A stretch of DNA of 64,000 nt from Yuukianura sp. NJ FZ-2021 (lineage: Eukaryota): positions 6,758,001-6,822,000 of the forward strand of contig CM102285.1 in NCBI GenBank assembly GCA_046563655.1, written 5' to 3'. The translations under genes and the position numbers were made by a program. Shown one piece after another: positions 28,401-61,299 of the stretch. Within the stretch, counting starts at the first letter, position 1; every line of letters begins with the position of its first letter. Below the pieces are notes generated by a model. It ran no database searches, was not told the origin of the DNA, and was given only the letters and a program-made list of their open reading frames with translations.

Positions 28401-30066
28401 GTCTCGCCTTCATCGTATTTACAGACGCCATCAACCAATTCAGTTTTGCTCCGTTCTGGGCTATCCTTTTCTTTTCAATGCTTTTTACCCTTGGAATCGA
28501 TTCGCAATTCGGTACACTGGAGGAGTCGTCACTTCCTTGGTGGATATGAAACTGTTCCCCAATTTAAGGAAAGAAATTCTAACAGGTAGTATACGCGCAG
28601 TTAAAAAAGTTATTCGGCGAATTTAAAAAAAGAGTCTATTCCTCAGGTATCCTATGCGGTCTGTGTTGCGCCTTGTCGATGATGTTCGCCCACGGAGCTG
28701 GGAATTATATATTCGTTCTCTTCGACAGTTTCTGCGGCAACATGCCGCTACTAATCATCGCCTTCTTCGAATGTATAGGCGTCGCATACATCTACGGTCT
28801 CAGTCGCTTCGCTGAGGACATTGAATTGATGACGGGTCGTCGACCTCATTTCTACTGGATGTTCTGTTGGAAGTATATTTCCCCCGTGGCTATGATCATC
28901 ATTCTGGGTACTTTGCAACCAACCTCTGTAGTATTGCGGAAGTTACTTTTAACCATTCTCTTGTTCGGTCTAATTACAGTTGCAAGTTGGGTGAAAATAG
29001 CTATGGAAGGAAGCTCCTATGCACGGTGGGACAAGGACAAGGCGGAGTCAATCAATACACCTTGGCCTAATTGGGCCCTTGTACTCGCCGTATTTCTCGT
29101 ACTGGTCTCCACTCTGTGGATTCCCATTATGGCTATTTTGAGGTAACTTATTTCAGTTTGCATGAAAAGGTTGAAAGTTGTCCTGATTTTTTAATGGTAA
29201 AGTTGAGAATAAGTGCTCCTAAACGGAGAGATCAATGCTTAGGTTATATTTTTACTGAAAGCCAAAGTGAAATCTAGCCAGAGTGTTGGACTTTCGAGGG
29301 AAAATTCCCTGCTGCCACTAATTACAGACATGAAAAAAATATTTACTAAAAACTGGCAAAATATTTAAACATTAAATAATTTTTTGTCAAAAACTCCAAA
29401 ACATTTACTTATTTAACACGGGGGGCATGAGAAATTAAATAAATATTTAGTAACAAAAAAACCCAGACTATTTAAATTCCTAACATAATAGTCATGATGA
29501 CTAAATATTTTTCTCATGTATGCTTGTTATGGAATTTCCTGGAGAATTTCAAACTTGTTGGTGTGAATTTCTACTTTTTTGTTTTTTCTTCCCTTTGCAC
29601 TGTCAACTGTCGCCAACTCGTGGAACTAGGTGTTTCGTGAAATACATGCGTAGTTGAGGCTACAGAAATTCAACAATCTGGGTGTTCAGTTTGGCTTTGA
29701 GTTTTAAGAACTTGAGTTCAAATAATCTTTTCATCATTACCTTTGGTAGACGGACTCGTATAATTTCTTATTGTTTGTGCATGATTCTGCTGTAATTTGA
29801 GGAAAACGTTAAAAAAATATCAATGAGAACCATTGCTAAACGTGTCTCACAGAATGCTCGGAATTACTCTAATGCCAAAAGAGGAGCCAGCATGGTTCCC
29901 AGCAAATGACTTACGTGATTTCCACGGGATTGTGACGCATGTGCCGACGGAGATGGAAAAATTATTCTTTGGATTCCGAGAAGATGGAACCGAAGGCATC
30001 ATTTGGAGGACAAAACCGAAACAGATTGGAGACGACGATGAGGAAGATTCCGAAGATATAACTTGA
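16448..30066 (+). CDS. SLC6 sodium-dependent neutral amino acid transporter (B0AT2/B0AT3, SLC6A15/17-like); about 13 exons; apparent 1-nt frameshift at ~28522
   Basis: [129 protein letters not shown]. Exons at ~16448-16639, 18433-18733, 18791-18899, 18970-19083, 23288-23352, 23440-23602, 24316-24425, 25704-25906, 28105-28293, 28385-28586, 28647-28907, 28980-29142, 29853-30066. Confidence 0.93.
17233..17549. repeat. Intronic inverted-repeat (MITE-like) element
   Basis: TTCAGGTGCAT...AAAACTACGACCAAACTTTTCGCATT...ATACGCTGCTCCACA is mirrored by TGTGGAGCAGCGTAT...AATGCGAAAAG...GGTCGTAGTTTT...ATGCACCTGAA. Confidence 0.65.
19618..21667 (+). pseudogene. Transib (RAG1-core-related) DDE transposase with two frameshifts (~20645, ~21515)
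   Basis: Motifs [77 protein letters not shown]. Removing 4 nt at CATCTTACTTGTG joins the two ORFs; the tail [14 protein letters not shown] lies in another frame. Confidence 0.9.
21710..21857. repeat. ~34-bp tandem repeat (about 4 units) in the Transib 3' region
   Basis: AAAGCGTGCT..TCCAGA.GC.ACCTGGTCAAAC repeated. Confidence 0.75.
25959..26417. mobile_element. Intronic MITE
   Basis: GGGTGGATTGGGGCATGTTCCAAGCAG / CTGCTTGGAACATGCCCCAATCTACCC inverted pair. Confidence 0.6.
26491..27988. mobile_element. Degenerate TIR element in an SLC6 intron
   Basis: ACCGCATTTACACCG...AAAGTAAATTACTTC versus GAAGTAATTTACTTT...CGGTGTAAGCGGT. Confidence 0.45.
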
Positions 30067-30990: not shown

Positions 30991-32752
30991 TTGTAATCAA
31001 CAATGACTCCCTGAATACCGCTCCTTTCAGCCGCGCCGTGAAAAATTACTTTGTAATTTGGCCAAATCAGAGGTCACTCAAGGTCATTTCAAAATCGGAG
31101 TCAAACAAATTTACATTATAATAGCTGAGAGGCATTACTGGTATCCTCAAATCTGGAAACACCATCGATTTATGTAATTCACAATATTTATATAGTAGCA
31201 ATTTTATTTAATTTGAAAATTGTTGTGCCATCCTTCCGATACGAAATTGCTAAAATGACTTCCACGCTTTCAAAAGGTCGAAAATTCCGCTATAAAACAT
31301 AAGAACTTCGCGCTGGTGCAAATTTATTAAAAAATTAATATAGTAGCGTATAATGTCATGACGAATTGTTGTATTGTGATAGTCGACAATAAATTGTCCA
31401 TGGGAATAGTAACTTACTATTTGGAGTATATAACCTATACGTAACTGCATATATTAAACTTAAAATCCAAATTAATTACTTTAGTTTAGCACGAAAATCT
31501 TATCAACTTCTGTTCGTTTTCATAATTCAATCTTTAGTTTAGGCAGCTCTATAATCGGTGCTTCTATTGGTTATCTTTATCCGAACTTTTGTGCCTAACA
31601 TACTTATTGCAACTGGACGCACTTGAACTTTAAGCAAAGTAATAGCTTCTTGAAGATAAAACTTTAATGGATTTATTCCGAACACTTCGCCTACTCTTCG
31701 ATAATCTCTTTATGCATGAAGCGTAAGATTTGCAGGTGTGAAAGGATATTAGTCAATGGTTTGGGTGACTAACTCCCCCCCGTCCCCCCTTTTCTTTTGC
31801 ACTTTTGGTTTTTCTTTTTACACTTTTGTGCAACTTTTTATATTTGGTTTTGGCCCATGCTCACTGTATGTTTAAGAGTTTAATTAGTTTTTAAAAATAA
31901 TTTAAAAAATATTTTGCGGTTTTGTGGTTTGAGTCCCACCTGAAAAATCCTCTCTTCTTTGCACTTTTATGCAACTTTTTAGTTTTTATAGCTTGGGCTC
32001 ATTTTAAACTTGGCATTTAATTTGGTTTTTAATTTTTTTTTGTGTTTAAAAATACTACTTTCACGGAAACTATTTTTCTCGGAAACCCTTTTAAATAATA
32101 AATTCTCAAAAATATTTCTTTGTAAACATCAGGTTCCTTTCTAAATATATTTCGAAAATATTTTGAGATGACACAAGACCTAACCTACTGTTTGTCTTGC
32201 ACGTTTGCGGTTTTTTAATTGCCAATTACTTCCGTGTCGCGATCGCTAATTAGAATGCACGAAAAAACTTACGACAAGTTCAAGCAATGAAAACTTTTGA
32301 CCTTGTGAATTGGTTGACTCGTGTACAAAATACAAACTTATTTGCAATACAAACCTAATTTGCAAACACAAGGGATTGGTGGGAGTTCTGCAGCCTAGCT
32401 TTTCGCCGAGTGAATAACGGTTCACTCACCGCAAAAGCATTGCGTAACCATTTCAATGCTACAATTTGACTAAGTCAGCGTTTCCATCTAGTTGCTTATG
32501 ATCCGTGGAGTGTTGGTACGCAAGTTTATACGACACCCAGTGCTCATTTTGGTATTGGTTTTTTTCAAAATCACAAATCTCACCGACTAATTTCTGCCGC
32601 TAGACGTCAACCTCGTTTACTATTGGTCCGCTAGTCCTTCAAAATTACACATGCTAGTCGTTTTGAATGGGCAGGGAAATAGCTTTATCGCAAGTCAACT
32701 GCCCAAGGACGTTCAAATCCCTCGAGTCTGACGACAAAGTGCGTCAACCTGA

Positions 32753-33030
32753 CTTCTGATTGGTCGACGTGTTGTTGCCACAAAGGGCGTGGCTAGTACA
32801 ATACTGAAATTTGATTGGTCAAAATCCCAACCTGTATACCAATTTCAGCCAATTGGCGTCCATCTCGCTTCTGATTGGTCGACGAGTCGTTGCATCAGTG
32901 GGCGTGGCCAGTACATTGCTGCAATTTGATTGGTCAAAATCCCAAGCCCTATACCAATTTTCAGCCAATGGGCGTGCAGCTCGCTTCTGATTGGTCGACA
33001 TGTCGTTCAAAAATGGCCTAGTCCCACCAA
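32753..33030 (+). promoter_or_regulatory. ~115-bp tandem repeat rich in CCAAT and GC boxes (putative viral promoter/enhancer); mirrored at ~44570-44848
   Basis: Units start at 32753, 32868 and 32984; each full unit has about 4 CCAAT/ATTGG boxes plus GGGCGTGGC; TATAAA at ~33188 upstream of the basic-protein ORF. Confidence 0.55.
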
Positions 33031-33340
33031 TGGCAGTGGCTGGTCGCAAAATGTTTTAAAATCCTCTGCCATTTTTTTCTAGAAAGTGCAATAAAATAAA
33101 CTCGTGGAATCATAAAAAGTGGTCTCGAGACATCATTTGTTGCGGAACCCTGGCGTATATACAGCATGCTGTGTGCGCCAGAACATTATAAACTGGCCAG
33201 TTTGGAAAACATTTAATCTTCACTGCTTTACCAAACCATACTCATTTGTAGTTTGAAGAGCAACCGGAAAGGGCGTGCTGGCAAAGCAGGAAGCAAAAGT
33301 AACCTCAAGGGTGTTTTTGACTGAGAGCGACACTGGTACA

Positions 33341-33674
33341 ATGGATTCTGCACAAGTTACGCCAAAGAATAGCAAGAAAACGAAAAACGAGGATGGAAAT
33401 CAGGTAATGGGGTTCCTCTCAAATGAAGAATTGCAAGTTCTGGAATCGGCTAATCGAAGAAACGCGAGAGTTGAGGATGACGATTCTGACGGACGGTCCA
33501 AGGTACCTCGCAAGTTGCAAAAAACGTCGCTGCAGCATGGAAGAATGTCGCCATTTGAACAGCATATCCCACACCAAATGTCGCCATGTGACACAGAAAC
33601 ACGCAAAACATCGAAAAAATCACGCCGCAAAGGGTCAAAGTCTACGAAATTGACGCGAAAACGAGAAAAAGGGG
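33341..33674 (+). pseudogene. Left-arm copy of the basic K/R/S-rich protein, disrupted by the BEL insertion (resumes 40293-40516)
   Basis: Identical to the N-terminal part of the right-arm ORF 43703-44260 up to the LTR insertion point. Confidence 0.7.
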
Positions 33675-36600
33675 TGTTTTGGCATTTGAGACGCTTCTCA
33701 ACAGGGAAGCGCCAAATTTAAAGTGTAAAAAGTGTCATGATATATAGTATAGCGAAAGTGGAAAACGTGCGTGTGAAGAAGATGAGCAGAGGAGCTGCCC
33801 ACTTCACTTCAATGCTCCTTTTCAAGCAGCATGGTCTGCAACTTCTCAATTTCCAATTAAATTTACAATCAAATGTAAATATTTTAAAGAATAACTTTAT
33901 TTTATAATAAAATACAAAAAACCAACATCCGCTCTACCATCCAATTCACTTCATGGTGCCGAACGACTGGTTTTCGTCAGGACAACGAACGACAACCAAC
34001 TGATCAACAAAGGATGAAGCAGGCGGTACTTTGGTAATCGGTTTCAACTAACGTAGCAGTTTTACGAGGTGAGTTGAAAAGTGTCAATTGAACAAATGTG
34101 TTAATGAATTAATCATTGTGTCATGTGTAATTCGTGTCTTCTTGATTCTTGGGTCATGTCTTTTGTGTTTACTGGCAACAGTCATTGTCTAACTTAACGT
34201 GTGTGGCTCTTTTTGAGTAAAATTAATCAAAGTTGACAAACTGTTGACCAGGAAGAAAGCCAAAGAATCATCTTTGGCCATGTCTGACCAAGAACAAGAG
34301 AGTAAGGTGGCTGCAGCAAAAGGTCAAGGTCAGGTCAAGCCGACTGGCTCGAAAACAATGCTGAGCGTGTCACTACCAAGTGTGGAGTCTGAAAACATGC
34401 AGAGAATGGTAAAGGCCATTAGAGGTTTTAACTTTGACCTCCAGTATTTTCAGCAAAAAGTGGAGGAGTACAGCACAACTCCCACCCTTGTATCCAAGCC
34501 CAGGATGGCTATGGAAAGGAAGAAACTCGAGGGTTTCGAAACAAGGCTAAGTGAATTGCGCAGCGATGTGTACATGAACTGCGACGACGAAACGCAAATA
34601 CGCGCGCAGGCTGCGGAATTGAATGTGTGTGATAAGTTTCTTGATGCAATTAATCTAAAATTGATTTCTTTTGAGTCCCAGGTTATTGGAGGCTCAACAT
34701 CAGGAAAAATGAAAGTGAACATGCCGAAACTGGAACTTCCGACTTTCAGTGGCAAATACGAAGACTGGCTTTCCTACAAGGATCTGATTTTGACTTACAT
34801 TGTCAACAATCCTGATTTGACTGGAAGCCAGAAGTTGGGCTATCTTCAACCTACGCTGAAGGGTGAGGCTGAAGATGCACTGAAATACTTTGACATGACG
34901 AATGGGACTTTTGAAGAGGCATGGGACAGCCTGAAAGAGCGGTATGAAAATCCGCGACAAATTGTGTTTTCATTTTTAAAAAACATTGTTCATTTTAAAC
35001 CCATTCAAAATGAGTCCGCACAAGCATTGAGAAAGTTGCTTGACGTGTTTAATCAGTCCATCAGGTCACTTCAGGTGTTGAAGGAACCTGTGGACAGGTG
35101 GGACTCGTTTTTAATTTTTTTGATTCTAGAGAAAGTCTCCAGTGAAACAAAACGTGAGTGGACCCGCCACTTCAAAGGTACGCAGATGCCTAAGTTCAGC
35201 GAGGTCAAGGACTTTCTAGAAGATCACCTTCGTGGGTTGAATGTCGGCTCAGAAAAATCGGGCCACAGTGAGAAAAAGACTGCTGAGAAACCCACTGAGA
35301 AAAAGTCTCACCAATCGTCCTCCAAAGTCCCATGTCCAAAATGCGGGGGAGAACATTCATTGTTCAAGTGTGAACAATTCAACTCCATGGCAGTCGACGA
35401 ACGTGAGAAATTGGTAAAGTCTAAAAATTTGTGTTTCTGTTGTCTCAGGGGTGGCCATGGTGAGAGCAAGTGTGTTTCGAAATTTAAATGTGCAAAATGT
35501 CAAAAGCGACATAACACACTGCTCCACTATGACAGAAAGCCGAAACCACCAGCAGTGGATACAAAGGAGGAGAAACCAACCACTTCAACCACAGCACTGT
35601 ACTGTTCTAGTACTCGTGTGATTTTGGCTACAGCAGTGGTGAGTGTAATGGACTCCTTTGGTGATTACCAAAACTGTCGTGTGTTGTTGGATCAAGGTTC
35701 TGAGTCCAACTTCATTTCAAATTCGTGTGTCAAAAAATTGGGTCTTAAAAAGCACCGTGCTAATGTGACCATTACAGGTATTTCAGGAACCAAGGTTGAA
35801 AGAGCGTTGGGGGAAACCAATTTTTGTGTAAAATCAAGACTAAATGATTTTGAAATTAACGTGTGTGCTTTAGTCTTGAACAAAGTTACAGGTTCTCTGC
35901 CTTCGTTCCTTGTCAAAAACACCGATTGGCCACACTTAAAAAATTTAGAACTGGCAGATCCTGCCTATCTATCAGTGACGTGGACATTTTACTCGGAAGT
36001 GAGTTTGTGGCCAGACTTAAGACTGGAAAAAAGGTACAAAGTGACCTAAGTCTACCCGTCGCTGAGGAAACTGAATTTGGGTGGGTCATTTCTGGCCCGG
36101 TAAGCAGCACAAAAAATGTAAGTGTCAATTTTTGTACCTCTGTGTGTGAATCATATGTGAAAAAATTCTGGGAACTTGAGAGTGTCCCAATTCGACCAGT
36201 TTACACTCAAGAGGAGTCACTGGCTGAGCAACATTTCATTTCAAATCACTCCAGGACTGAGAGTGGTAGGTACGTGGTTAAATTACCGTACAAAAATGAT
36301 TGTGTCAAATTGGGTTCGTCACGTGACATGGCCGTAAGTCGATTGATAGGAATCGAAAAACGTTTGCAAAAGTTCCCTCAGTACAAGGACGACTACCACC
36401 AATTTATGTCAAAATACAAGGAACTTGGCCACATGAGTCCAGTGACCAAGTCGGAGGAGGGTGAGGTCATTGGAGTGACAAACTATCTGCCTCATCACTT
36501 CGTGTTAAAAGACACAAGTACCACTACCAAATTACGAGTTGTATTCGACGGTTCTGCGAAAACATCGAATAATGTGTCTTTGAATGATTGTTTGTTAGTG

Positions 36601-39600
36601 GGTCCTACTATCCAAACTGATATATTTTCTCATTTGTTGTTTTTTAGGACTAATCAAATCGCACTCAAGGCGGACATTGTCAAAATGTACCGTCAATTCC
36701 TCGTGGACCCAATTGACCAGAGAAAACAGAGGATACTCTGGCGAGAAACACCAAGTGATGAAATTGGTGAATACCAACTAACGACAGTGACGTACGGCAC
36801 AAGCTCCGCCCCATTTCACGCCGTCAGATGCCTGCAGCAATTAGCCGAAGACGAAAAGACTAAATTCCCAATGGCTGCTGAGGTATTGAAATCAAATTTC
36901 TACGTGGACGACTTGATGGGAGGAGCCAACAGTGTCCAAGAGGCTAACCAACTCGTGACGGAGCTAGAAGGACTTTTACGTCGTGGTTGCCTTGAAATTA
37001 CGAAGTGGGACTCGAATTCGAAAGAGGTTCTAAAGTCCATTCCTAAGGTAAACCGTGGAAAAAATGACGTAATTACATGTGATGCAGATTTTGACAGAGT
37101 TCTAGGTGTTTGTTGGGACAGTGGAGGTGATTACTTTCACTTCAAGGGTTACACTCCAAAACCAGTGGGCGTGGTCACAAAGAGGACAGTCTTGTCGACG
37201 ATGTCCAAGGTTTTTGACCCACTTGGTTTTTTGTCCCCCCTAACTGTCAAAATTAAAGTCTATTTTCAGGTACTATGGTCTCCAGTTCAAGGAAGTAAAA
37301 ATGGAATTCTCTCATGGGACGATGAGATTCCTCCTGACCTGGCTGGACAATGGCATGACTATGTCCAAAGTGTCCACGACATAAAAAGTCTAACCATTCC
37401 CAGGTTTTTGTTCTCAGATTCTCCAGAAATCGTTGAAATTCATGGATTTTGTGACGCATCGGAACTGGCCTACTGTGCGGTAGTATACGTCCGTTCAATT
37501 CAGAGGAATGGTCGGGTCACTACTAACATAATCGCATCAAAGACGAAAGTGGCTCCTATGAAGCAGATCAGCCTTCCACGACTCGAGTTGTGTGGTGCTC
37601 TACTTCTGGCAAAATTGATTCCCAAAGTGATGGAAGCCACTCGTCTCAATTGCACAATCATCACTTGGACCGACAGTGAAACGGTACTCAAGTGGCTGCG
37701 TAACACGAGTCGTAAGTTTGTTACTTTTGTTGCTAATCGTGTTTCTGAGATACAGGAAGTAATTCCTGTCAGTTCCTGGAATTTTGTTCCTGGAATTGAT
37801 AATCCAGCAGATTTAGGGACTCGTGGGATAACAGCAGAGGAACTCGTAAGTTCAAATTTGTGGTGGTGTGGCCCAGACTGGTTAAAAAATGGAAATTTGC
37901 CAGTATTTGAGTCAGAGGGTAAAGTAAGTGACCACTCTGAACTCCTGGAATTACGAAAGGTAAAGGGGAATCTGACCCTAATCGACCGTGACATGATGAA
38001 ACGATTTTCCAATTTCATGAGGCTTAACCGTGCCGTGGCATATGCCATAAGATTTGTTTCAAATTGCAGGAATTTGAAACAGGGGGAGAGGCTTACTGGT
38101 GATCTATCAGTTGAAGAAACGGAGAGAGCCCTCCTAATCTGTGTCAAAGTAGCCCAAGAAGACGACTACAATGATGACATAATGGCCTTAAAGAAGAACA
38201 ATCGAGTGGACAAGGGAAGTGCATTGGAGTCACTACACCCATTTCTGGACAGTCATGGAGTGATGCGTGTCGGAGGGAGACTCCAAAAGTCTGACTTACC
38301 AAGTGACCAATGCCACCCCATCATTTTATCAGGTCAAAATCATTTCACCAAAATCATGGTAAGGTATTTTCATCATTTTTATCTTCACGCCAATTACCAA
38401 TTGTTGTGGGCAAACTTGTCCAAACGATTTTGGATCGTGAGAGCCCGAGTCACAATTCGTCAGGTGGTCAGAGACTGCCTGAAGTGCAAAAGACTACGAG
38501 CCAAAGCCAGTGAACAACTGATGGGATCATTACCAAGGGCAAGAGTAACTCCCTCTCCTCCATTTACTCACTGTGGAGTCGACTACGCAGGCCCCTTTAA
38601 GCTGCAAGAAAAGTACGGACGTGGTAAAAGGCAATTTGATGCCTATTTTTGTGTATTTGTCTGTTTTGCGACACGGGCAATCCATTTGGAACCCGTGACA
38701 GACTTGACCACGGCTGCATTCATTGCGACTCTAAAAAGATTTATTTCCAGACGTGGACTTGTGACTGAAATTCATTCGGATTGTGGCAAAAACTTCGTTG
38801 GCGCAGCTAACGAAATGAAAGAGTGGGTTAAGATTATTCATGATTCTAAAATATCTGATTTTTTATGTGTTTCAGGGATACAATGGAAATTTATCCCCCC
38901 TGATGCCCCACACATGGGTGGACTTTGGGAATCTGGAGTAAAATCGGCAAAGTACCACCTCAGGAGAGTGGTTGGGAATACGACTTTGACACTGGAGGAA
39001 TTTTACACGCTCCTGACCATGGTGGAAGCAGTGCTCAACTCACGGCCGATTTGTGCAAAATCTCGTGATCCAGATGACGTTGAGGCCCTCACTCCAGGTC
39101 ACTTCCTCATTGGAAAGCCGCTACTCGCCATCCCAGAGCCACCATTGACCGAAATCAAGGAGCACAGACTGTCGAGATGGCAACGTGTCCAGCAGATGTC
39201 TGAACATTTCTGGAATCGCTGGAAAAAAGAGTACCTCAACCTTCTCCAGCAACGCAACAAGTGGCGAAATGAGGCTGAGAATATCAAAATTGGCGATCTC
39301 GTCCTAATCAAAGACGACGATACTCCACCGTTGAAGTGGAAACTCGCCAGAGTCACCAAAACATTCCCTGGAGAAGACAACCTGGTCCGATCAGTCGAGG
39401 TGAACTTCAAAACTACTGAAATCGACAAGAAAGGTCAATCCAAAGTCAAGGATCATGTGTTTCTTCGTCCAATTGTGAAAATCGTCAAGCTACTACACCC
39501 AGAGTAGCGTAAGTCCAGGGACTTTGTGTAAATAATTTAGTGTAAAATTCAAAATATTCATTTATTATTTCATAACTTTAAAATTTGGGTTAAAGTTACA

Positions 39601-40287
39601 TTTAAAATCATAAGTATTAAGTAGCTTTTTCAAGCAATCAAAACATAGGTGTTAAGTTAGGATTAGTTTCTAAATCCTATCTCTTTCCAAAACTTAAAAT
39701 TAGGGGTAAAAATCATTTGCAAAAACACCCTCCGTTCGAGTAGACTTAATTACTTAACTTAAGGTGCATCAATTCTGGATTGTGTGTCTGTGTGGGCGAT
39801 CTGTTGTGTTCTGATCTACTGGTAGGGTCCAGTAAACGGCAAAATCCAGCTTGAGCAACTGGAAGAAGGCCTTGTCCACCTTCAGCCACCGAATCCAGTA
39901 GCATCAGAGCACCCTTCATTTTTTCATTTGTGTACATCCAGAATTGGTCATCATTTTCTTTTGTGTTTTTTAAAAATTGAATGACTTAGTCATTCAATGG
40001 AGGGCGGTGTTTTGGCATTTGAGACGCTTCTCAACAGGGAAGCGCCAAATTTAAAGTGTAAAAAGTGTCATGATATATAGTATAGCGAAAGTGGAAAACG
40101 TGCGTGTGAAGAAGATGAGCAGAGGAGCTGCCCACTTCACTTCAATTCTCCTTTTCAAGCAGCATGGTCTGCAACTTCTCAATTTCCAATTAAATTTACA
40201 ATCAAATGTAAATATTTTAAAGAATAACTTTATTTTATAATAAAATACATAAAATCCAACATCCGCTCTACCATCCAATTCACTTCA
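33675..40287 (+). mobile_element. Full-length BEL/Pao LTR retrotransposon
   Basis: LTRs 33675-33953 and 40008-40287 (TG...CA, only about 3 differences); 5-bp TSD AGGGG; PBS TGGTGCCGAA (tRNA-Phe-like) at 33954; PPT GGAGGGCGG before the 3' LTR. Confidence 0.97.
34280..39507 (+). CDS. BEL/Pao gag-pol polyprotein (DUF1759 gag, 3 Zn knuckles, protease, RT, RNase H/peptidase A17, integrase, DUF5641), split by a frameshift at ~35975
   Basis: PKLELPTFSG, CPKCGGEHSLFKC, LLDQGSE, YLPHH, KLRVVFDGS, FYVDD, HGFCDASE, PRLELCGA, GVDYAGP, SDCGKNF, GGLWE, LTPGHFLIG. Confidence 0.93.
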
Positions 40288-40941
40288 AGGGGGAAGAAAA
40301 GAGGAGAGAATCGAATCCCCACGCTGTAGTGGAGCAGAATCTGATACAGATTCAACAAAAAAGAACAAAAAACATCAAAAAGTCGCCCAAACTGACGTTG
40401 CAGGAAAGAAATCAACTAGAAAAACTTCAAAAAGGAAACCAAAAAGGGGGCAAACTGGACTTAAGTATGCTACTTCGTATAAGAATGGTGCAAATGGTAG
40501 CCTGCTTCTGCGGTGAAACCACTTGCCTTTACACATTTGTCATTAAGTATAGTAGAAACTAAAGTCTCCCCACCTTTTGACTACTATAAATTAGCATTAT
40601 TAGCCAGTTTGGCGGCCAGTCGGCATGCGAAAGCCGAGGTGACAACACCTCTCCGCCAAAAAATTGTGCAAAATTGTACGTTTAGTGAGCACAGTTGTCT
40701 TCAAACGGTCGCCAATCGGTACCCAAAAGCCAAATTTAATACACTTTTCTGCCAAAAAGTTGGACATTTGCATCCAAACGGTCGCCAGTCGGCATCGGCA
40801 CCTCTTATCGACCTCATCTCTCGACGTACTTTAGACAACAATTGGCTCTACATTGTTGAGGTTCAGCGATTTTTAGCAAATTAAAATACCCCAACAATAT
40901 CTCACAGACTTGACCTAAAACGAGGCCAACTAACCACGGAA

Positions 40942-42252
40942 ATGGAGCTTACCGTTCCAATGCACTCGAAGCTGGTGGACACAAATGCCAAATTGGACTT
41001 GTTTTCCATGCCAGATACCGAAGTTTCTTGCTTGCTGGACAATTATGTCAAAGTAGAGTCGTACTATGCAACAAAAGGAAATGAAAATCCGATTCATTTT
41101 TCGTTTTGGCAAATGGCCTACCTGGATTTGTCGGATTCGTTTTTCAGATTTGTAGTCTCCATTCGAAAAAAAGATGGTTCGGCACTCGGTGACACAGACA
41201 AGGTTGCTCCGGAAAATCTGTTCTTTCACACATTTATCGAAGATTTTAAAGTCGTTGTCAACAACACGCAAGTCGTGGCCCAGGGGCCAAGGGCATACCC
41301 GTACGAGGCTTGGATATTTACTCAACTTCAGCAAGGGATTGGTTCGAAAAGCAGTACATTGTCCAGGGAAATTTATTTTCCCGGCAATGTTATGGACAAC
41401 TTTGACGACACAAACCCAAGCGTCAAAGCTCGACTTGAGCTGGCAAAGAAAAGTAATCAATTTGAGATGATTGGACGCCCGATGCTTGGAATTTTCACTT
41501 CGCCGAGACTTTTCCCGCCAGGAACACGGTTCAATTTTCAAATTCAGCGGACCAACCCAGAGTTTTGCTTGTGCGGACCATCCTCTACATCTGAATACAA
41601 GGTTGAAGTGGAGTGTGCAGACTTTTACGTTCGCCAATATCGTCTAAATGAAAAGTTGACTACTCAACTTCGCACCGCATTTGCAAAAAAGAAAATGGCA
41701 TTGTACTCTTTTGACAACGCCGTCAAGTTCTCTACGTATGTACCCATTGGGGTCACCGAATTTGAAATTCCAAAAATTATGCCTACCGCAATTCGGCCAA
41801 AGCTTCTCTGCATTGCAATTACGACAAGCGAAGTCGTCAATGGCAAACTCGAAAAGTCACCGTTTAATTTCAAACCACATGGAATCAAAAACATGAAACT
41901 CAAATTCGAAGGAAAGGGAGTTGTTTTTGAGGAAATGAACTTTGAAAACAAAAATTACATGCTGGCCTACAGCAACATGTGCAAGTTAATTTCACATGGA
42001 ACCGACGGAAACGACATTACATATGAGCAATTTGTAAAGGGCAATGCGATTTTTGTGTTTGACACTCAAAACTTGAGATCAGACACGTTCAACCCTGGAA
42101 AAATTGGACAATTTGCATTGGGCCTTAGTTTTGACGAAAAGACAAAGGAAGAGCTAATGGTTATCACCATTGCCGTGGAAGACGTTATACTGGAAATTGG
42201 AGAAGGCGGACTAACGCGTTTTGCATCTACGAAAAGCATTTTTTTCAAGTAA
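40942..42252 (+). CDS. Polinton/adintovirus-type major capsid protein (double jelly-roll; F54H12.2/PY-like), full length, 436 aa
   Basis: Family motifs recognised along the whole length: KLDLFSMPDT, YLDLSDSF, APENLFFHTF..FKVVVNN, YPYEAWIFTQL, RPKLLCIAI, KSPFNFK, GNDITYEQFVKGNAIFVFD, FALGLSF, VITIAVEDVILEI. Confidence 0.85.
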   Translation: MELTVPMHSKLVDTNAKLDLFSMPDTEVSCLLDNYVKVESYYATKGNENPIHFSFWQMAYLDLSDSFFRFVVSIRKKDGSALGDTDKVAPENLFFHTFIEDFKVVVNNTQVVAQGPRAYPYEAWIFTQLQQGIGSKSSTLSREIYFPGNVMDNFDDTNPSVKARLELAKKSNQFEMIGRPMLGIFTSPRLFPPGTRFNFQIQRTNPEFCLCGPSSTSEYKVEVECADFYVRQYRLNEKLTTQLRTAFAKKKMALYSFDNAVKFSTYVPIGVTEFEIPKIMPTAIRPKLLCIAITTSEVVNGKLEKSPFNFKPHGIKNMKLKFEGKGVVFEEMNFENKNYMLAYSNMCKLISHGTDGNDITYEQFVKGNAIFVFDTQNLRSDTFNPGKIGQFALGLSFDEKTKEELMVITIAVEDVILEIGEGGLTRFASTKSIFFK

Positions 42253-42299
42253 TTTTTCTCAACTTAAAATTTCAAAGCGTTCCTTCATATGTATTCCAC

Positions 42300-43277
42300 T
42301 CACAATACTTTATACAATTCATAATCTTGTGTAATGTATGGTATGAGCTTGAAAAACGGTGACTTTTCGAGTTTGCCATTGACGACTTCGCTTGTCGTAA
42401 TTGCAATGCAGAGAAGCTTTGGCCGAATTGCGGTAGGCATAATTTTTGGAATTTCAAATTCGGTGACCCCAATGGGTACATACGTAGAGAACTTGACGGC
42501 GTTGTCAAAAGAGTACAATGCCATTTTCTTTTTTGCAAATGCGGTGCGAAGTTGAGTAGTCAACTTTTCATTTAGACGATATTGGCGAACGTAAAAGTCT
42601 GCACACTCCACTTCAACCTTGTATTCAGATGTAGAGGATGGTCCGCACAAGCAAAACTCTGGGTTGGTCCGCTGAATTTGAAAATTGAACCGTGTTCCTG
42701 GCGGGAAAAGTCTCGGCGAAGTGAAAATTCCAAGCATCGGGCGTCCAATCATCTCAAATTGATTACTTTTCTTTGCCAGCTCAAGTCGAGCTTTGACGCT
42801 TGGGTTTGTGTCGTCAAAGTTGTCCATAACATTGCCGGGAAAATAAATTTCCCTGGACAATGTACTGCTTTTCGAACCAATCCCTTGCTGAAGTTGAGTA
42901 AATATCCAAGCCTCGTACGGGTATGCCCTTGGCCCCTGGGCCGCGACTTGCGTGTTGTTGACAACGACTTTAAAATCTTCGATAAATGTGTGAAAGAACA
43001 GATTTTCCGGAGCAACCTTGTCTGTGTCACCGAGTGCCGAACCATCTTTTTTTCGAATGGAGACTACAAATCTGAAAAACGAATCCGACAAATCCAGGTA
43101 GGCCATTTGCCAAAACGAAAAATGAATCGGATTTTCATTTCCTTTTGTTGCATAGTACGACTCTACTTTGACATAATTGTCCAGCAAGCAAGAAACTTCG
43201 GTATCTGGCATGGAAAACAAGTCCAATTTGGCATTTGTGTCCACCAGCTTCGAGTGCATTGGAACGGTAAGCTCCAT
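42300..43277 (-). CDS. Second, C-terminally truncated copy of the MCP gene (325 aa), convergent with the first
   Basis: Identical to the first ~308 aa except V112A, then runs into the spacer (FKLIPYITQDYELYKVL*). Confidence 0.8.
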   Translation of the reverse strand: MELTVPMHSKLVDTNAKLDLFSMPDTEVSCLLDNYVKVESYYATKGNENPIHFSFWQMAYLDLSDSFFRFVVSIRKKDGSALGDTDKVAPENLFFHTFIEDFKVVVNNTQVAAQGPRAYPYEAWIFTQLQQGIGSKSSTLSREIYFPGNVMDNFDDTNPSVKARLELAKKSNQFEMIGRPMLGIFTSPRLFPPGTRFNFQIQRTNPEFCLCGPSSTSEYKVEVECADFYVRQYRLNEKLTTQLRTAFAKKKMALYSFDNAVKFSTYVPIGVTEFEIPKIMPTAIRPKLLCIAITTSEVVNGKLEKSPFFKLIPYITQDYELYKVL

Positions 43278-43702
43278 TTCCGTGGTTAGTTGGCCTCGTT
43301 TTAGGTCAAGTCTGTGAGATATTGTTGGGGTATTTTAATTTGCTAAAAATCGCTGAACCTCAACAATGTAGAGCCAATTGTTGTCTAAAGTACGTCGAGA
43401 GATGAGGTCGATAAGAGGTGCCGATGCCGACTGGCGACCGTTTGGATGCAAATGTCCAACTTTTTGGCAGAAAAGTGTATTAAATTTGGCTTTTGGGTAC
43501 CGATTGGCGACCGTTTGAAGACAACTGTGCTCACTAAACGTACAATTTTGCACAATTTTTTGGCGGAGAGGTGTTGTCACCTCGGCTTTCGCATGCCGAC
43601 TGGCCGCCAAACTGGCTAATAATGCTAATTTATAGTAGTCAAAAGGTGGAGAGACTTTAGTTTCTACTATACTTAATGACAAATGTGTAAAGGCAAGTGG
43701 TT

Positions 43703-44260
43703 TCACCGCAGAAGCAGGCTACCATTTGCACCATTCTTATACGAAGTAGCATACTTAAGTCCAGTTTGCCCCCTTTTTGGTTTCCTTTTTGAAGTTTTTC
43801 TAGTTGATTTCTTTCCTGCAACGTCAGTTTGGGCGACTTTTTGATGTTTTTTGTTCTTTTTTGTTGAATCTGTATCAGATTCTGCTCCACTACAGCGTGG
43901 GGATTCGATTCTCTCCTCTTTTCTTCCCCCTTTTTCTCGTTTTCGCGTCAATTTCGTAGACTTTGACCCTTTGCGGCGTGATTTTTTCGATGTTTTGCGT
44001 GTTTCTGTGTCACATGGCGACATTTGGTGTGGGATATGCTGTTCAAATGGCGACATTCTTCCATGCTGCAGCGACGTTTTTTGCAACTTGCGAGGTACCT
44101 TGGACCGTCCGTCAGAATCGTCATCCTCAACTCTCGCGTTTCTTCGATTAGCCGATTCCAGAACTTGCAATTCTTCATTTGAGAGGAACCCCATTACCTG
44201 ATTTCCATCCTCGTTTTTCGTTTTCTTGCTATTCTTTGGCGTAACTTGTGCAGAATCCAT
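43703..44260 (-). CDS. Intact K/R/S-rich low-complexity basic protein (~185 aa from ATG), putative DNA-condensing core protein
   Basis: MDSAQVTPKNSKKTKN...RKTSKKSRRKGSKSTKLTRKREK...KKSTRKTSKRKPKRG; lies downstream of the CCAAT array and TATA box; function inferred from composition only. Confidence 0.5.
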   Translation of the reverse strand: MDSAQVTPKNSKKTKNEDGNQVMGFLSNEELQVLESANRRNARVEDDDSDGRSKVPRKLQKTSLQHGRMSPFEQHIPHQMSPCDTETRKTSKKSRRKGSKSTKLTRKREKGGRKEERIESPRCSGAESDTDSTKKNKKHQKVAQTDVAGKKSTRKTSKRKPKRGQTGLKYATSYKNGANGSLLLR

Positions 44261-46255
44261 TGTACCAGTGTCGCTCTCAGTCAAAAACACCCTTGAGGTT
44301 ACTTTTGCTTCCTGCTTTGCCAGCACGCCCTTTCCGGTTGCTCTTCAAACTACAAATGAGTATGGTTTGGTAAAGCAGTGAAGATTAAATGTTTTCCAAA
44401 CTGGCCAGTTTATAATGTTCTGGCGCACACAGCATGCTGTATATACGCCAGGGTTCCGCAACAAATGATGTCTCGAGACCACTTTTTATGATTCCACGAG
44501 TTTATTTTATTGCACTTTCTAGAAAAAAATGGCAGAGGATTTTAAAACATTTTGCGACCAGCCACTGCCATTGGTGGGACTAGGCCATTTTTGAACGACA
44601 TGTCGACCAATCAGAAGCGAGCTGCACGCCCATTGGCTGAAAATTGGTATAGGGCTTGGGATTTTGACCAATCAAATTGCAGCAATGTACTGGCCACGCC
44701 CACTGATGCAACGACTCGTCGACCAATCAGAAGCGAGATGGACGCCAATTGGCTGAAATTGGTATACAGGTTGGGATTTTGACCAATCAAATTTCAGTAT
44801 TGTACTAGCCACGCCCTTTGTGGCAACAACACGTCGACCAATCAGAAGTCAGGTTGACGCACTTTGTCGTCAGACTCGAGGGATTTGAACGTCCTTGGGC
44901 AGTTGACTTGCGATAAAGCTATTTCCCTGCCCATTCAAAACGACTAGCATGTGTAATTTTGAAGGACTAGCGGACCAATAGTAAACGAGGTTGACGTCTA
45001 GCGGCAGAAATTAGTCGGTGAGATTTGTGATTTTGAAAAAACCAATACCAAAATGAGCACTGGGTGTCGTATAAACTTGCGTACCAACACTCCACGGATC
45101 ATAAGCAACTAGATGGAAACGCTGACTTAGTCAAATTGTAGCATTGAAATGGTTACGCAATGCTTTTGCGGTGAGTGAACCGTTATTCACTCGGCGAAAA
45201 GCTAGGCTGCAGAACTCCCACCAATCCCTTGTGTTTGCAAATTAGGTTTGTATTGCAAATAAGTTTGTATTTTGTACACGAGTCAACCAATTCACAAGGT
45301 CAAAAGTTTTCATTGCTTGAACTTGTCGTAAGTTTTTTTCGTGCATTCTAATTAGCGATCGCGACACGGAAGTAATTGGCAATTAAAAAACCGCAAACGT
45401 GCAAGACAAACAGTAGGTTAGGTCTTGTGTCATCTCAAAATATTTTCGAAATATATTTAGAAAGGAACCTGATGTTTACAAAGAAATATTTTTGAGAATT
45501 TATTATTTAAAAGGGTTTCCGAGAAAAATAGTTTCCGTGAAAGTAGTATTTTTAAACACAAAAAAAAATTAAAAACCAAATTAAATGCCAAGTTTAAAAT
45601 GAGCCCAAGCTATAAAAAAAAACTAAAAAGTTGCATAAAAGTGCAAAGAAGAGAGGATTTTTCAGGTGGGACTCAAACCACAAAACCGCAAAATATTTTT
45701 TAAATTATTTTTAAAAACTAATTAAACTCTTAAACATACAGTGAGCATGGGCCAAAACCAAATATAAAAAGTTGCACAAAAGTGCAAAAAGAAAAACCAA
45801 AAGTGCAAAAGAAAAGGGGGGAAGGGGGGGGAGTTAGTCACCCAATCCATTGACTGATATTGACGTAACGTTGATGCCCGATAACTGTACGGGAATTCGT
45901 AGGAGATTTCTAGTAAAATAAGTTATAATGTAGTGAATCACTAGGCAAATAAAAATGTCAAAAATTGTGATGCGCATTAAATTAAATGAAAGCCCACTAA
46001 ACATGAAATAACCTCTATACACCTGATTGCAAACATATCAGTGAGTAGGTACACAAATCAAGAATTTTGAAACCAAAATTATGAAACTTAAATGAGAATG
46101 TCAAAATGCTAACATGATACGGTAAAACTATGGGTGCCACAAACGTGCGTAAAGAAGTGGAAAACTTAATGCGTGAAGTCTTAAATTTATCCTCCAAACA
46201 CAGACTTCGATAAATTCCACCTCAAATTGAGATTGGCAACACATAACCCAAAGGG

Positions 46256-46615
46256 GGGTACGCCATTTCATCGAATGAATTACAACGTGGTGAATTTCGC
46301 CGAAGGAATTTCCCCGAAACCATTCACAACGAAAGTTCAATTACCCCGAAGCGAATTACAACGAAAGTGCAATTACAACAAAAGTCAATGGATTCCGGCT
46401 AGCTTACGATGGGTTACCGCGCCGAAGTCGCGGCGACAGGTTTGGCAAAGCACGTAATAAGTGATTACGTCTGTAGGTTCTAATTGTCTAAGCCTGGCTA
46501 TGGTTACACCGTTGGAGTTAGTACTTCGTTGTACTTTCGTTGTAATTGATTTCGGGGAAATTCCTGCGATGAAATTGACTTCGTTGTAATTCACTCGATG
46601 AAATGACATCGAACC
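46256..46615. mobile_element. Foldback MITE
   Basis: CATTTCATCGAATGAATTACAACG...GGAATTTCCCCGAAA mirrored by TTTCGGGGAAATTCC...CGTTGTAATTCACTCGATGAAATG. Confidence 0.6.
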
Positions 46616-52354: not shown

Positions 52355-55189
52355 TTAACGGAAACTTAATTCATGTGACTGTTTTTGTAGTAGTGCTTTC
52401 TTCAATTTGGTTTTAAAACTAGAGTAAGTAACGGCTTTCTTAATGTTATCATCTAAATTATTCCATAACATAAGTGATTTAGAGTGAAATGTAGAGATGC
52501 CATACTTTCCCTGAATCGTGACAACAAATTTACTCTTCGCTGATGACGTTGGGTACCTATGGATGTCTGTAATTGGCTTATAATACGATTCCAATGTTTG
52601 AATTTGTTTATCAGTTACCAGCTTATACGTAAGACAAAGGACTTTGAACTCATACAAAAATTTTGGAAAAAGCCATTTCAGAGAGTCTGTTATCTCCTCT
52701 GAAATGGTTTCAAACTTTCTTTTGCCAGTTACCAACCTTCCCATCGCTCTAATTACTTTCTCTACTTTCTTTTTATTTTTGATTGTCGTCTCTCCCCACA
52801 GAACTATCATGTATTGTAAAACAGAATATACAGCAGCTTCGACTATAACTTTCTTTGATTTGAAAGAGAAATATTCTTTCACACTAAAAATTTTGCTTAA
52901 AACTGCGAAACAGTTTTTTACCACATTGTCCACTTGTATGTTCCACTTAAAATCAGGCTCTAGGATTAATCCTAAGCACTTTATAGTTTCACTCACAGCA
53001 ATTTCAATTTCACCAACTTTGATTACGAAACTTCCAAATCTTTCTCGTTGTATTTTTGACCCAAATACTAAGATTTTGGTCTTCTCTTTATTTAAAATCA
53101 AAACATTTTCTTGCAACCATTCAGAAATTCTTTCCATTTCGAAATTAATATTTTCGATAAGACTTTCCTTTTGATCCCAATCTCCTACAAAGAGTAAATT
53201 GGTATCATCTACAAAAATCTGAGGTTCAGCATGTTTTAATATTTTGACAAGGTCGTTAATATAAAAAGTGAAAAATATTGGTCCAAGAACACTTCCTTGT
53301 ATAAGTCCAGTCAGGTTCTCATTAATCTTTGATCTCCTATTATTGATCTCAACAAATTGATTCCTTTCATTGAAATAATTTCGTATCCAAAAATCAGATA
53401 TCTGAAAAAATTTTTGTATTTTTTCCAAGAACTTTTCCCGATGTACAGTTGGGAATGCATTTTTTAGATCAATACTGACCAAAACACATGCTTTTCCTTT
53501 GTCCATATATTTCTTAATTTTGTCTACTGTCATGATTAGAGCATGTTCAGTAGAGTGGTGTTTACGGCACCCAAATTGATTCTCTGTAAGTACTTTTCGC
53601 TTGTTAACGTGCTCCAGGACTTTATTAGCATAAATTTTTTCCAATAAAATCAGAAGAAAGTGAGAAATTCCAATTGGTCTAAAATCTTTAAAAGCTTTGG
53701 CGTCTTTAACTTTTGGGATAGGACAAATCCTTGTAGTTTTCAGTAGTTTAGGAACTACGCCTGTTTCAAAGCTTATATTGCAGAAACTTGTTAGTGCATC
53801 CAAAAAACTGTGACAGTTGATCAGCACATTAATCATTCTTTTACTTATTTGCAATTCTTCCACTTGCGACTTTCTATTTCGCATTCTTTTCCACGCAAAT
53901 TTAACTTCCTCTGTCGTCACCTCCTTGACAAAAAACAATTGACTGTCCTCTGGTGGTCTAACCGCTACTTTCGTAGACACAGTTAAATATGGATTTACGT
54001 TTTCAGGGAAAGCATTTTTTATGTAAAAGTCGTTAAGTTGATCCACATCGAAGTTGACTTCCTTGTTTAAGGCATGTCTTTGTTTTAATTGAAAATTGAA
54101 TTCATTCTTTAAGACATTCCATACGTTGCTTTTTTCGATTTCGAGTTTTACTCTTTCGGAAACTTGGCTTTTTATCTTCATTTTAACCAAGTTTTTATTT
54201 TCTCTTAACTGATTCTTCAGTGAAAGTACTTTAGTTGATCTGTAGTTTTTATACAATTCTCTGCCTTTGCGTATTAATTCAAGAATCTCTTTGGTTGGTT
54301 TTGCACCTTCAGAGTTTCTTCCCAATTTAATTCTCCTTTTTAATGGAGTTACTTGATCGAAAACGTTTGTCGTGTCTTTAATTAAAGCATTCAATACTTC
54401 ATCAACATTAGTTAATTCAGTACCAAAGGTAGTTTGAGCAACAATTTCATTTAACTTCATCAAGTCTAAGTCTTTAAAATCTCTGTAAAGTTCGAACTCT
54501 TTACTTTTTTTTTCTGATCCAACTGTAAACGAAACTTTCGAAAGGTTGTGATCAGAAATACCATAATCACTAACCTTGACTTTATAATCAGTAACAGAAT
54601 TCGTGATAATTACGTCAAGAATTGCTCTTTCTCTTGTTGGATGACTAACCAACTGCTTTAAGTCCATCCGGTTAACCAGATTGACCAGTTGATTTGTTTG
54701 TGAGCAATCTTGCAATAAGTCACGATTCAAGTCACCAATAACCCAGAAAGATTTGTTTGTCATTTTTAGTTGAAATAGAATTTCTTCTAAATTGTGCATG
54801 TCATTTTTGTTGTTCTTGTTCGGAATGTACACAGCACATACCAAAAAACTGCTCGTGAAGTTGACTTGAAAATTCATACATAAAAACTCTATTGCAGACG
54901 GCTGCTTGAAATTATTTTTGCTTAGTTCAAAGTCCCATGTTTTAAAACTGTTTTTAAAAAGAATCCCTACTCCTCCTCCAGTACTATCCCTATCTTTTCT
55001 TGAAAGTACGTAACCCCTGGGAACTAAACATTCCGATTTCTTCTTTAACCATGTTTCTGTTGTGACTAGTATATCTATCTCTTCAGCATGTAAAATAACC
55101 TCTACATGTTTCATTTTGTTATAAATAGCCCTTACGTTCTGGTTTCCTATGTTAATATTTTTGATTCTTCGGTTTTTGCTATCATGTAG
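52355..55189 (-). CDS. LINE ORF2: APE endonuclease plus reverse transcriptase, intact
   Basis: NIGNQNVRAI (upstream of the first ATG at 55114), VTTETWL, GGGVGI, IGDLN, HPTR, ILDVII, ISDH; RT motifs FRPIG, QFGCRKHHST, IDLKNAFPTV, QGSVLGP, FVDDT. Confidence 0.93.
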   Translation of the reverse strand, partial: LHDSKNRRIKNINIGNQNVRAIYNKMKHVEVILHAEEIDILVTTETWLKKKSECLVPRGYVLSRKDRDSTGGGVGILFKNSFKTWDFELSKNNFKQPSAIEFLCMNFQVNFTSSFLVCAVYIPNKNNKNDMHNLEEILFQLKMTNKSFWVIGDLNRDLLQDCSQTNQLVNLVNRMDLKQLVSHPTRERAILDVIITNSVTDYKVKVSDYGISDHNLSKVSFTVGSEKKSKEFELYRDFKDLDLMKLNEIVAQTTFGTELTNVDEVLNALIKDTTNVFDQVTPLKRRIKLGRNSEGAKPTKEILELIRKGRELYKNYRSTKVLSLKNQLRENKNLVKMKIKSQVSERVKLEIEKSNVWNVLKNEFNFQLKQRHALNKEVNFDVDQLNDFYIKNAFPENVNPYLTVSTKVAVRPPEDSQLFFVKEVTTEEVKFAWKRMRNRKSQVEELQISKRMINVLINCHSFLDALTSFCNISFETGVVPKLLKTTRICPIPKVKDAKAFKDFRPIGISHFLLILLEKIYANKVLEHVNKRKVLTENQFGCRKHHSTEHALIMTVDKIKKYMDKGKACVLVSIDLKNAFPTVHREKFLEKIQKFFQISDFWIRNYFNERNQFVEINNRRSKINENLTGLIQGSVLGPIFFTFYINDLVKILKHAEPQIFVDDTNLLFVGDWDQKESLIENINFEMERISEWLQENVLILNKEKTKILVFGSKIQRERFGSFVIKVGEIEIAVSETIKCLGLILEPDFKWNIQVDNVVKNCFAVLSKIFSVKEYFSFKSKKVIVEAAVYSVLQYMIVLWGETTIKNKKKVEKVIRAMGRLVTGKRKFETISEEITDSLKWLFPKFLYEFKVLCLTYKLVTDKQIQTLESYYKPITDIHRYPTSSAKSKFVVTIQGKYGISTFHSKSLMLWNNLDDNIKKAVTYSSFKTKLKKALLQKQSHELSFR

Positions 55190-61200: not shown

Positions 61201-61299
61201 TCCGGAAGAAGCTATGATGTTAGATAAGATCCATTGTTCTGTGAGCTTGACGTTAAGTGATCTGCCGGTTGCGGTAACTGATGAAAAGTCGGAAACTGC
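58276..61299 (-). pseudogene. RFX-like winged helix, reverse transcriptase, Zn knuckle and restriction-like endonuclease; one in-frame TGA at 60112-60114
   Basis: GSAGGLDLLRPQ, KKNGGVRPIAIG, Q(V)*VGV (normally QxGVG), KLDFKNAFN, GVQQGDPLGPALF, WYLDD, GGLGIR, CKC..HGLSC, RHN, RPDG, WDFT, KHNLY, IAVETSG, QRISIAIQRGN. Confidence 0.88.

Follow-up and report, generated by a model that had tools for sequence, protein, structure and literature searches.

A near-palindromic, capsid-encoding Polinton derivative with a target-site duplication in the genome of Yuukianura sp. NJ FZ-2021

Introduction

How does a virus-like mobile element come to sit in a chromosome as a near-palindrome, with a capsid gene and none of the enzymes by which such elements copy and insert themselves? 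This question is raised by an element at positions 31751-45855 of a 64,000-nt stretch of DNA from Yuukianura sp. NJ FZ-2021 (assembly GCA_046563655.1, contig CM102285.1, positions 6,758,001 to 6,822,000 of the forward strand). The whole stretch is referred to here as the window, and all coordinates are window positions. The element is a non-autonomous derivative of the Polintons, also called Mavericks, polintoviruses or adintoviruses. An initial annotation of the sequence had proposed that one end of a parent Polinton was copied back on itself and that the product was inserted by the integrase of a helper.

Polintons are thought to be real viruses, and the products of their replication have hardly been observed. 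Vertebrate Mavericks, in the available portion of PMC8097293, have duplications of 6 bp at the target site (TSDs), end motifs of the AGT or AG type and terminal inverted repeats (TIRs) of 46-1,447 bp. Intact copies measure 12.7-24.6 kb, and 96% of copies are defective.

Termini and arms of the element

The element spans 14,105 nt. Once a nested BEL/Pao retrotransposon and the TSD of that retrotransposon are removed, 7,487 nt remain, which matches the ~7.5 kb annotated initially. Both junctions can be read directly: the left flank ends in GAAAG GATATT and passes into AGTCAATGG, and the right end of the element, CCATTGACT, passes into GATATT GACG. The two GATATT copies (31745-31750 and 45856-45861) are identical direct repeats of 6 bp, for which the chance at any one fixed position is 1/4096, and the element starts with AG and ends with CT. 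A 6-bp TSD, AG...CT termini and TIRs (AGTCAATGG...CCATTGACT) are the signature of Polinton/Maverick insertions, including the non-autonomous ones.

Two arms of ~3.5 kb make up 93% of the element. By blastn and repeat search, 31751-33674 pairs in inverted orientation with 45855-43927 at 99.4-99.5% identity, and 40287-41865 pairs with 43932-42354 at 99.87% (2 mismatches). Aligned by MAFFT with the retrotransposon left out, the arms differ over ~3,497 positions by 5 mismatches and by 4 indels, of 1, 4, 1 and 1 nt. The left arm, on the plus strand, is divided by the retrotransposon. Its outer part (31751-33674) starts with AGTCAATGG and contains ~1.6 kb without long open reading frames (ORFs), CCAAT-rich tandem repeats and the start of an ORF for a basic protein. 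Its inner part (40288-41865) contains one TSD copy of the retrotransposon, the remaining basic-ORF region and codons 1-308 of a major capsid protein (MCP) gene. The right arm (42354-45855, minus strand) is an unbroken inverted copy of the left and ends in CCATTGACT. Between the arms lies a non-palindromic spacer of 488 nt (41866-42353, plus strand), composed of the MCP C-terminus and 101 nt of 3' sequence. Junction reading, blastn and MAFFT bear out the termini, TSD, inverted arms and spacer of the initial annotation, and comparison of 31751-45855 with itself by repeat search and blastn recovers the arms. The arms were also said to exceed the usual length of Polinton TIRs. They do so when compared to the vertebrate Maverick range in the part of PMC8097293 that was available.

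The outer 1.6 kb of the arm contains no ORF of at least 80 aa, and no Rfam family matched within 31000-46600. It does contain CCAAT/ATTGG-rich repeats at 32591-33007, mirrored at 44594-45010, which are composed of 4 copies of a 115-137-nt unit (repeat search; TRF period 115). The motif occurs 13 times in the 601 nt from 32500 to 33100, or 21.6 per kb, compared to 3.5 per kb across the window. This region is a putative promoter or enhancer for both genes.

Two other assignments of the element were rejected. Ginger2/Tdd transposons also have a 6-bp AT-rich TSD and, in the available portion of PMC2836005, are described with TGTNR termini and an RTATAY target; the element here has ends of the form AGTCA..., and GATATT does not fit RTATAY. 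A foldback element was set aside because of the termini. Just to the right of the element, 46264-46605 contains a pair of 77-nt inverted repeats (86% identity, 188 nt apart) and tandem repeats of 17 and 32 nt, and may be a small insert resembling a miniature inverted-repeat transposable element.

The nested BEL/Pao retrotransposon

A BEL/Pao long terminal repeat (LTR) retrotransposon occupies 33675-40287 on the plus strand. It is found only in the left arm, where it interrupts the left copy of the basic ORF at 33674. Two mismatches and one indel separate the LTRs (33675-33953, 279 nt, and 40008-40287, 280 nt), and the 5-bp TSD AGGGG is found at 33670-33674 and 40288-40292. Pfam domains in the insertion are Peptidase_A17 (1e-47), DUF1759 (1e-34), DUF5641, rve and RVT_1. 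It thus has the features of its class: a Pao-type aspartic peptidase, a reverse transcriptase, an integrase, TG...CA LTRs and a short TSD.

The site without the retrotransposon is preserved in the right arm, as revealed by blastn. It is also found in reads. Logan contigs of four sequencing runs were placed on 31000-42420, a range that stops short of the right flank junction. Three of these runs are from one sample (S1, including run X1), and the fourth, X2, is from another study with another organism label. The retrotransposon-free arm joint 33668->40287 is present in all four. From the order of nesting, the BEL/Pao element landed in the left arm later. In X2, the joint occurs in two variants, ~1% and ~8% diverged. 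Divergence between the LTRs (2/281) and between the arms (5/3,500) is not significantly different (Fisher P=0.09), and it was dropped both for dating and as an indication of gene conversion between the arms.

Read contigs across the palindrome

Contigs of run X1 stop at 31750, 41865 and 42355, which are the branch points expected of a palindrome in a k=31 graph, and one X1 contig (41836-42355) covers the spacer. Contig depth is a rough guide and not a copy number. In X1, depth is 268-292 in the flank, 615 in the inner arm and 427 in the spacer contig. The inner arm is thus at ~2.3x the flank, which roughly indicates that the locus has two arms and that further copies are few. Depth over the outer arm (31762-32904) is 760-2,047, above the 615 of the inner arm. 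This excess suggests, again as a rough measure, that the termini occur in other elements too, as would be the case for a helper.

One X1 contig of 1,125 nt ends at 31750, the last base of the left TSD, and not 30 nt into the element. Such an end would fit an empty-site allele in the same sample.

In X2, depth rises inward from the terminus: ~6 in the flank, 12-86 in the first ~1.1 kb of the arm, 126-243 in the remaining arms and ~700 in the gag region of the retrotransposon. This pattern could reflect many copies in that organism or an RNA run, and it was not used as evidence.

The capsid and basic-protein genes

The MCP gene (40942-42252, plus strand) is complete and encodes 436 aa, of which the last ~128 codons are inside the spacer. 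At E<=1e-3, the protein has matches in 2,961 representative clusters, whose usual length is ~435 aa, and it aligns over its full length with its closest relatives (P0001-P0007). Because this alignment runs end to end, the C-terminus encoded by the spacer is genuine.

The predicted structure of the protein is that of a capsid. AlphaFold2, run on an 85-sequence alignment, returned a model with pLDDT 90.9 and pTM 0.89. Foldseek against the PDB matched this model to solved double-jelly-roll capsids with probability 1.00 and TM 0.52-0.66: SGIV (Singapore grouper iridovirus), PBCV-1 Vp54, Sputnik and mavirus (E 7e-16 to 7e-13). In BFVD, a protein borne by a Cotesia bracovirus comes first, with adomavirus LO7 and virophage MCPs next. 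PF21738 (DJR-like_dom) is carried by a minority of members among the Atlas neighbours and is matched by 5 of the 85 family members at E<=0.01; the MCP of the window itself falls below threshold. Sequence searches of Pfam, PHROGs and the PDB returned nothing meaningful for the MCP, and matches to cholera toxin B chains at E~0.2 were discarded as noise. No match was found in the phage collection, and neither the single-protein metagenome scan nor the viral_contigs scan found anything. On the strength of the model, the 436-aa ORF is identified as a complete double-jelly-roll MCP, the fold that the initial annotation had expected.

The second copy of the gene is truncated (42300-43277, minus strand). 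It encodes 308 MCP residues followed by 17 unrelated residues from the other strand of the spacer, and by tblastn residues 16-311 of a related MCP (locus L032, below) match 43238-42354. The second jelly roll is at about residues 250-430 of the model, so the truncated protein is without most of it.

Just upstream of the MCP, an ORF encodes a basic protein. The intact copy is in the right arm (43703-44260, minus strand; 185 aa, pI 10.4, 25% K+R). The left copy, which starts at 33341, keeps its first ~111 codons and is cut by the retrotransposon at 33674. No homologue was found in Pfam, by BLASTP against the corresponding ORF of the related locus L001, in a search of 5.8 billion proteins or in the Atlas. 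In 7 related loci, the ORF directly upstream of the MCP is basic as well (pI 10.5-12.0). By position and composition, the ORF of the window is an analogue of these, and its product is possibly a DNA-binding core protein.

Affiliation with Polintons and the missing genes

A profile scan of metagenome contigs yielded 50 loci that carry related MCPs. One of them, L032 (13.9 kb), has the order pPolB, ATPase, rve/chromo integrase, a 263-aa ORF, a basic ORF, MCP and Peptidase_C5. Shorter contigs (L013, L026, L033, L016 and L008) keep this order in the parts that they contain. By tblastn, at least 1 other Polinton gene is present beside the MCP in 39 of the 50 loci. This gene neighbourhood supports the assignment of the MCP family to the Polintons.

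The element itself has none of these partners. Two pPolB queries from related loci gave no tblastn match inside 31751-45855 at E<=1, and five Polinton integrase queries gave none in the arms or the spacer. One weak integrase match (37738-37818, E 0.13) falls in the nested retrotransposon, which supplies the only rve domain of the region. Queries for the ATPase, the penton-like protein and the protease (from L032, L013, L026, L008 and L016) gave no tblastn match in the element. The queries for these three come from distant relatives, which limits the sensitivity of tblastn. No long unassigned ORF is left in the element. The initial annotation had limited the coding content to an MCP and a basic protein, with pPolB, integrase, ATPase, protease and penton all missing; the ORF listing and tblastn at E<=1 agree with it on both counts.

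The element is therefore a non-autonomous Polinton derivative, because the integration signature and a capsid gene are present and the enzymes are not. By the defining gene set, it is not a Polinton. It shares with Polintons the 6-bp TSD, AG(T)...(A)CT ends, TIRs and a double-jelly-roll MCP whose homologues lie within an array that runs from pPolB, ATPase and integrase to MCP and protease. It differs by the five missing genes and by its dimensions, with 7.5 kb in place of 12.7-24.6 kb for intact vertebrate Mavericks and arms of 3.5 kb in place of TIRs of 46-1,447 bp. It also has a single AGT at its end, whereas the vertebrate Mavericks described in the available part of the same source have a repeated (AGT)2 or (AG)3.

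Elsewhere in the window, 61359-61577 (minus strand, within ORFs at 58276-62060) encodes 73 aa that match the N-terminal, pre-polymerase part of the L032 pPolB ORF at 37% identity (E 1.5e-5). The match lies among minus-strand ORFs with RVT_1 (58276-60111) and RFX (60112-61299) domains.

Closest relatives and a possible capsid-only lineage

The closest MCP found, at 50% identity, is encoded by L001, a metagenome contig of 3,944 nt. In L001, direct repeats, a basic ORF and the MCP all lie between inverted repeats (3-454 and 3365-3795, 83-90% identity). These ~450-nt repeats are built of tandem units of ~225-245 nt. From the MCP stop to the right repeat there are 230 nt, and apart from frames overlapping the MCP or the basic ORF, these two are the only ORFs of at least 100 aa. 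The window element resembles L001 in its direct repeats, in a basic ORF followed by an MCP, in the enclosing inverted repeats and in having no room for other genes. L001 differs in that its inverted repeats are outside the genes, its contig ends inside the repeats and its basic ORF is not similar in sequence.

Other close relatives have little beside the capsid gene. L002 has no ORF of at least 92 aa in 1.5 kb downstream, and L006 has none above 122 aa in 3.2 kb downstream. Among the 8 closest loci (L001-L007 and L010; 30-52% identity), none carries another Polinton gene, compared to 39 of the 42 others (Fisher P=3e-7). These 8 contigs are just 1.2-4.8 kb in length, and the Polinton gene queries come from a distant clade. 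The ratio of nonsynonymous to synonymous substitutions (dN/dS) of the MCP is 0.165 between L003 and L004 (dS 0.48) and 0.056 between L005 and L006 (dS 0.58); the MCPs of the closest clade are under purifying selection. L005 and L006 are no longer similar in nucleotide sequence past the MCP stop codon.

The window element and these 8 loci might represent a lineage of capsid-only Polinton satellites, a reading that is offered tentatively and that seems unlikely at present. Such satellites would have ends of the Polinton type and, between them, two genes, one for a basic DNA-binding protein and one for the MCP. For replication, integration, protease and packaging they would depend on autonomous Polintons, the helpers, and yet would need a working capsid gene of their own. 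A need for its own capsid gene in order to spread would account for dN/dS values of 0.06-0.17 in the absence of neighbouring Polinton genes. A different lead, drawn like the first from short contigs of other organisms, is that the capsid genes of the closest clade have been retained by hosts.

Origin of the palindrome

The first-ranked origin, which is believed and doubted in about equal measure, is a copy-back event on an extrachromosomal molecule, which would then have been integrated in trans. The template would have been switched (copy-back or TIR extension) while such a molecule was replicated by protein-primed strand displacement, and the right-hand part of the element would have been replaced by an inverted copy of ~3.4 kb of the left-hand part. 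This would result in a near-palindrome of 7.5 kb with an asymmetric centre of 488 nt, the inner join probably being made at 2 nt of microhomology. The product would have two usable ends, into which a Polinton integrase acting in trans could engage for insertion, generating the GATATT duplication. The BEL/Pao element would have entered the left arm later. We infer that the switch came before integration, that it was linked to replication and that a helper carried out the integration.

Several observations are consistent with this origin. Since the element has no replication, integration or packaging gene, insertion would have been in trans. The helper integrase of the initial annotation gains from the missing enzyme genes and the Polinton-type TSD, while helper integration itself is a step that the structure only implies. 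One contig of X2 runs through the spacer as far as 42355, where it passes into 20 letters not found in the window; neither the read continuation after 42355 nor that after 42257 matches the window at <=3 mismatches. This continuation and the X1 contig end at 42355 indicate that a non-palindromic relative exists. The palindrome junction shares 2 nt with this relative (AA, 42354-42355), an overlap that would be the expected trace of a template switch or of a microhomology join.

A number of findings weigh against this account. The 2-nt microhomology rests on the 20 letters of a single X2 contig. Within the arms, 3 of the 5 mismatches and 1 indel fall in the outermost 70 nt (31760, 31775, 31782 and 31820). 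The probability that at least 3 of 5 mismatches would fall there is P=8e-5, and only 2 mismatches are found in the remaining ~3,430 nt. This terminal cluster suggests separate histories for the two termini, the right one probably being no copy of the left, though later change at the ends may also have contributed. The recent inverted duplication seems to start ~70 nt inside the ends, with the right terminus being an original and slightly different TIR. A one-step snap-back predicts identical termini, so the difference in the outermost 70 nt weakens its simple version. Routes that fit the termini are priming from the TIR with a second switch, a later exchange of ends, or repair in situ with the right TIR invading the left. 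In the window and the contigs of the four runs, neither a second palindromic copy with a different TSD nor a parent element was seen. Nor does any contig of these runs bridge 41865/41866 by at least 31 nt or span the whole of 31000-42420 in one piece; contigs cannot prove the palindrome, the overlap at 41865/41866 being k-1, or 30 nt only. Moreover, the basic ORF may not be a real gene, because it has no homologue. The immediate parent, for its part, may itself have been a two-gene, capsid-only element like L001, given that further Polinton genes are missing from all 8 of the closest loci. The parent Polinton of the initial annotation is upheld for the MCP family, which is Polinton by neighbourhood, though an autonomous parent is not necessary. 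Its snap-back from one parent end is likewise plausible insofar as an inverted end duplication has replaced the rest, and is held back by the outermost 70 nt.

A rearrangement after integration accounts for the same structure and is a serious competitor, though one that is judged rather less probable than copy-back. A longer, non-palindromic Polinton-type element with imperfect TIRs of ~70 nt would have integrated normally and then suffered a break near 42355. During repair, invasion of the inverted left TIR by the right TIR would have started break-induced or template-switch synthesis, in which the left interior was copied inward, and the new end would have joined the other broken end at the 2-nt microhomology. 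Neither a palindromic episome nor integration in trans would be needed. This course of events explains why the outermost 70 nt diverge when the arms are 99.9% identical elsewhere, and why the TSD and both flanks are retained. It also fits the non-palindromic continuation past 42355 in X2, the like continuation implied by the X1 contig end, and the lack of any sign of further palindromic copies, the inner arm of X1 being at roughly twice the flank depth by a rough measure. It requires, however, that synthesis of more than 3 kb was primed by 70 nt of inverted homology at ~95% identity. A parent allele was not seen at the site, and the X1 contig end at 31750 would fit an empty-site allele better than a parent allele.

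Far less probable than either is that very long, gene-bearing TIRs are the normal, inherited architecture of a Polinton sub-lineage and not a one-off defect. There is a precedent, which counts for copy-back as well, in butterfly polintons, which carry hexon and adenain twice in ~2-kb TIRs (bioRxiv 10.1101/2025.02.07.637071, available portion), and L001 places a basic ORF and an MCP between inverted repeats. The arms here, though, make up 93% of the element, and their inner boundary cuts the MCP at codon 308 and leaves a truncated copy, which looks accidental and not designed. The repeats of L001 are outside its genes, and X1 depth shows no sign of a family of such copies. Least credible of all is that a fold-back chimeric read or a mis-join made the palindrome during assembly. 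The breaks of the contigs at every boundary, and the lack of a read seen across the whole structure, would suit an artefact. Against it, the arms differ by 5 bases and 4 indels, one arm only contains a 6.6-kb BEL/Pao element with its own TSD, a conserved ORF is completed by the unique 488-nt spacer at the centre, the unique sequences of the two flanks differ from each other and have a common 6-bp TSD, and the X1 inner arm has roughly the depth expected for two arms. As far as can be judged, the palindrome is a real structure.

Known counterparts and meaning

Defective Mavericks, gene-bearing TIRs and snap-back genomes are already known, and a capsid-only, near-palindromic Polinton with a TSD is an unusual variant of these. 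In the accessible part of the butterfly preprint, a capsid (hexon) gene lies inside the inverted repeats, two per insertion, and TIRs mark genuine insertions, as in the window. Those elements are full-length, however, with other polinton genes between the TIRs. In the window, the only coding sequence between the arms is the last 128 codons of the MCP, and the second MCP is truncated. The initial annotation had set the ~3.5-kb arms beside Polinton TIRs usually under ~1 kb. Arms of 3.5 kb do exceed the vertebrate range, but gene-bearing TIRs of ~2 kb are known from the accessible part of the butterfly preprint.

Incomplete-particle DNA of adenovirus, described by Daniell in 1976, reportedly provides a snap-back precedent. 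Snap-back and copy-back genomes are defined types of defective viral genome in the available portion of PMC13506859. Like the window element, they have lost most genes, repeat one of their ends as an inverted copy and retain replication and packaging signals at both ends. The window element differs in being chromosomal with a TSD, in its non-identical termini and in its intact capsid gene, and no episomal or encapsidated form of it is known.

A partial literature search found no description of a capsid-only or palindromic Polinton with a TSD in the portions of the sources available; the supplements of the Pannagram preprint and of PMC8097293 may list TIR lengths and defective forms. If the copy-back origin is true, an integrated genome of this kind, with its TSD, would be a fossil of protein-primed replication gone wrong, and it would mean that the integrase accepts any DNA with two proper ends. 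If lone capsid genes under selection were confirmed on complete elements, they would represent capsid-encoding Polinton satellites or capsid genes kept by hosts, neither of which is documented for this class in the accessible parts of the literature searched. Should all of this prove wrong, what is left is a further defective Maverick of unusual shape.

Possible function

Defective-interfering or satellite activity had also been proposed for the element in the initial annotation. No support for either was found, and copy number in sample S1 looks low, at ~2.3x flank depth as a rough figure. In the anatomy of the element, the intact MCP gene is preceded by the CCAAT-rich repeats, an arrangement that would allow expression. 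Truncated MCP could interfere with the Polinton family. Convergent transcription of the facing arms would give a long hairpin RNA, which could interfere with the family as well. Mu killer of maize is said to be an inverted duplication of part of a transposon, whose transcript is a long hairpin RNA directed against the family. The likeness between such hairpin-RNA loci and the palindrome of the window is an analogy only.

Genomic surroundings

Upstream of the element, the window contains fragments of host genes: the C-terminal domain of HYLS1 (6203-6712), NPRL3 (9093-10534) and a sodium:neurotransmitter symporter (18295-18903 and 28583-29146). Together with the RFX domain at 60112-61299, these genes, the symporter being of the SNF family, mark the host as an animal. 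The element begins ~2.5 kb past the last detected exon of the symporter. Downstream, a 944-aa ORF at 52355-55189 on the minus strand (RVT_1, 2.8e-27) represents a further retroelement in an AT-rich, strongly skewed stretch.

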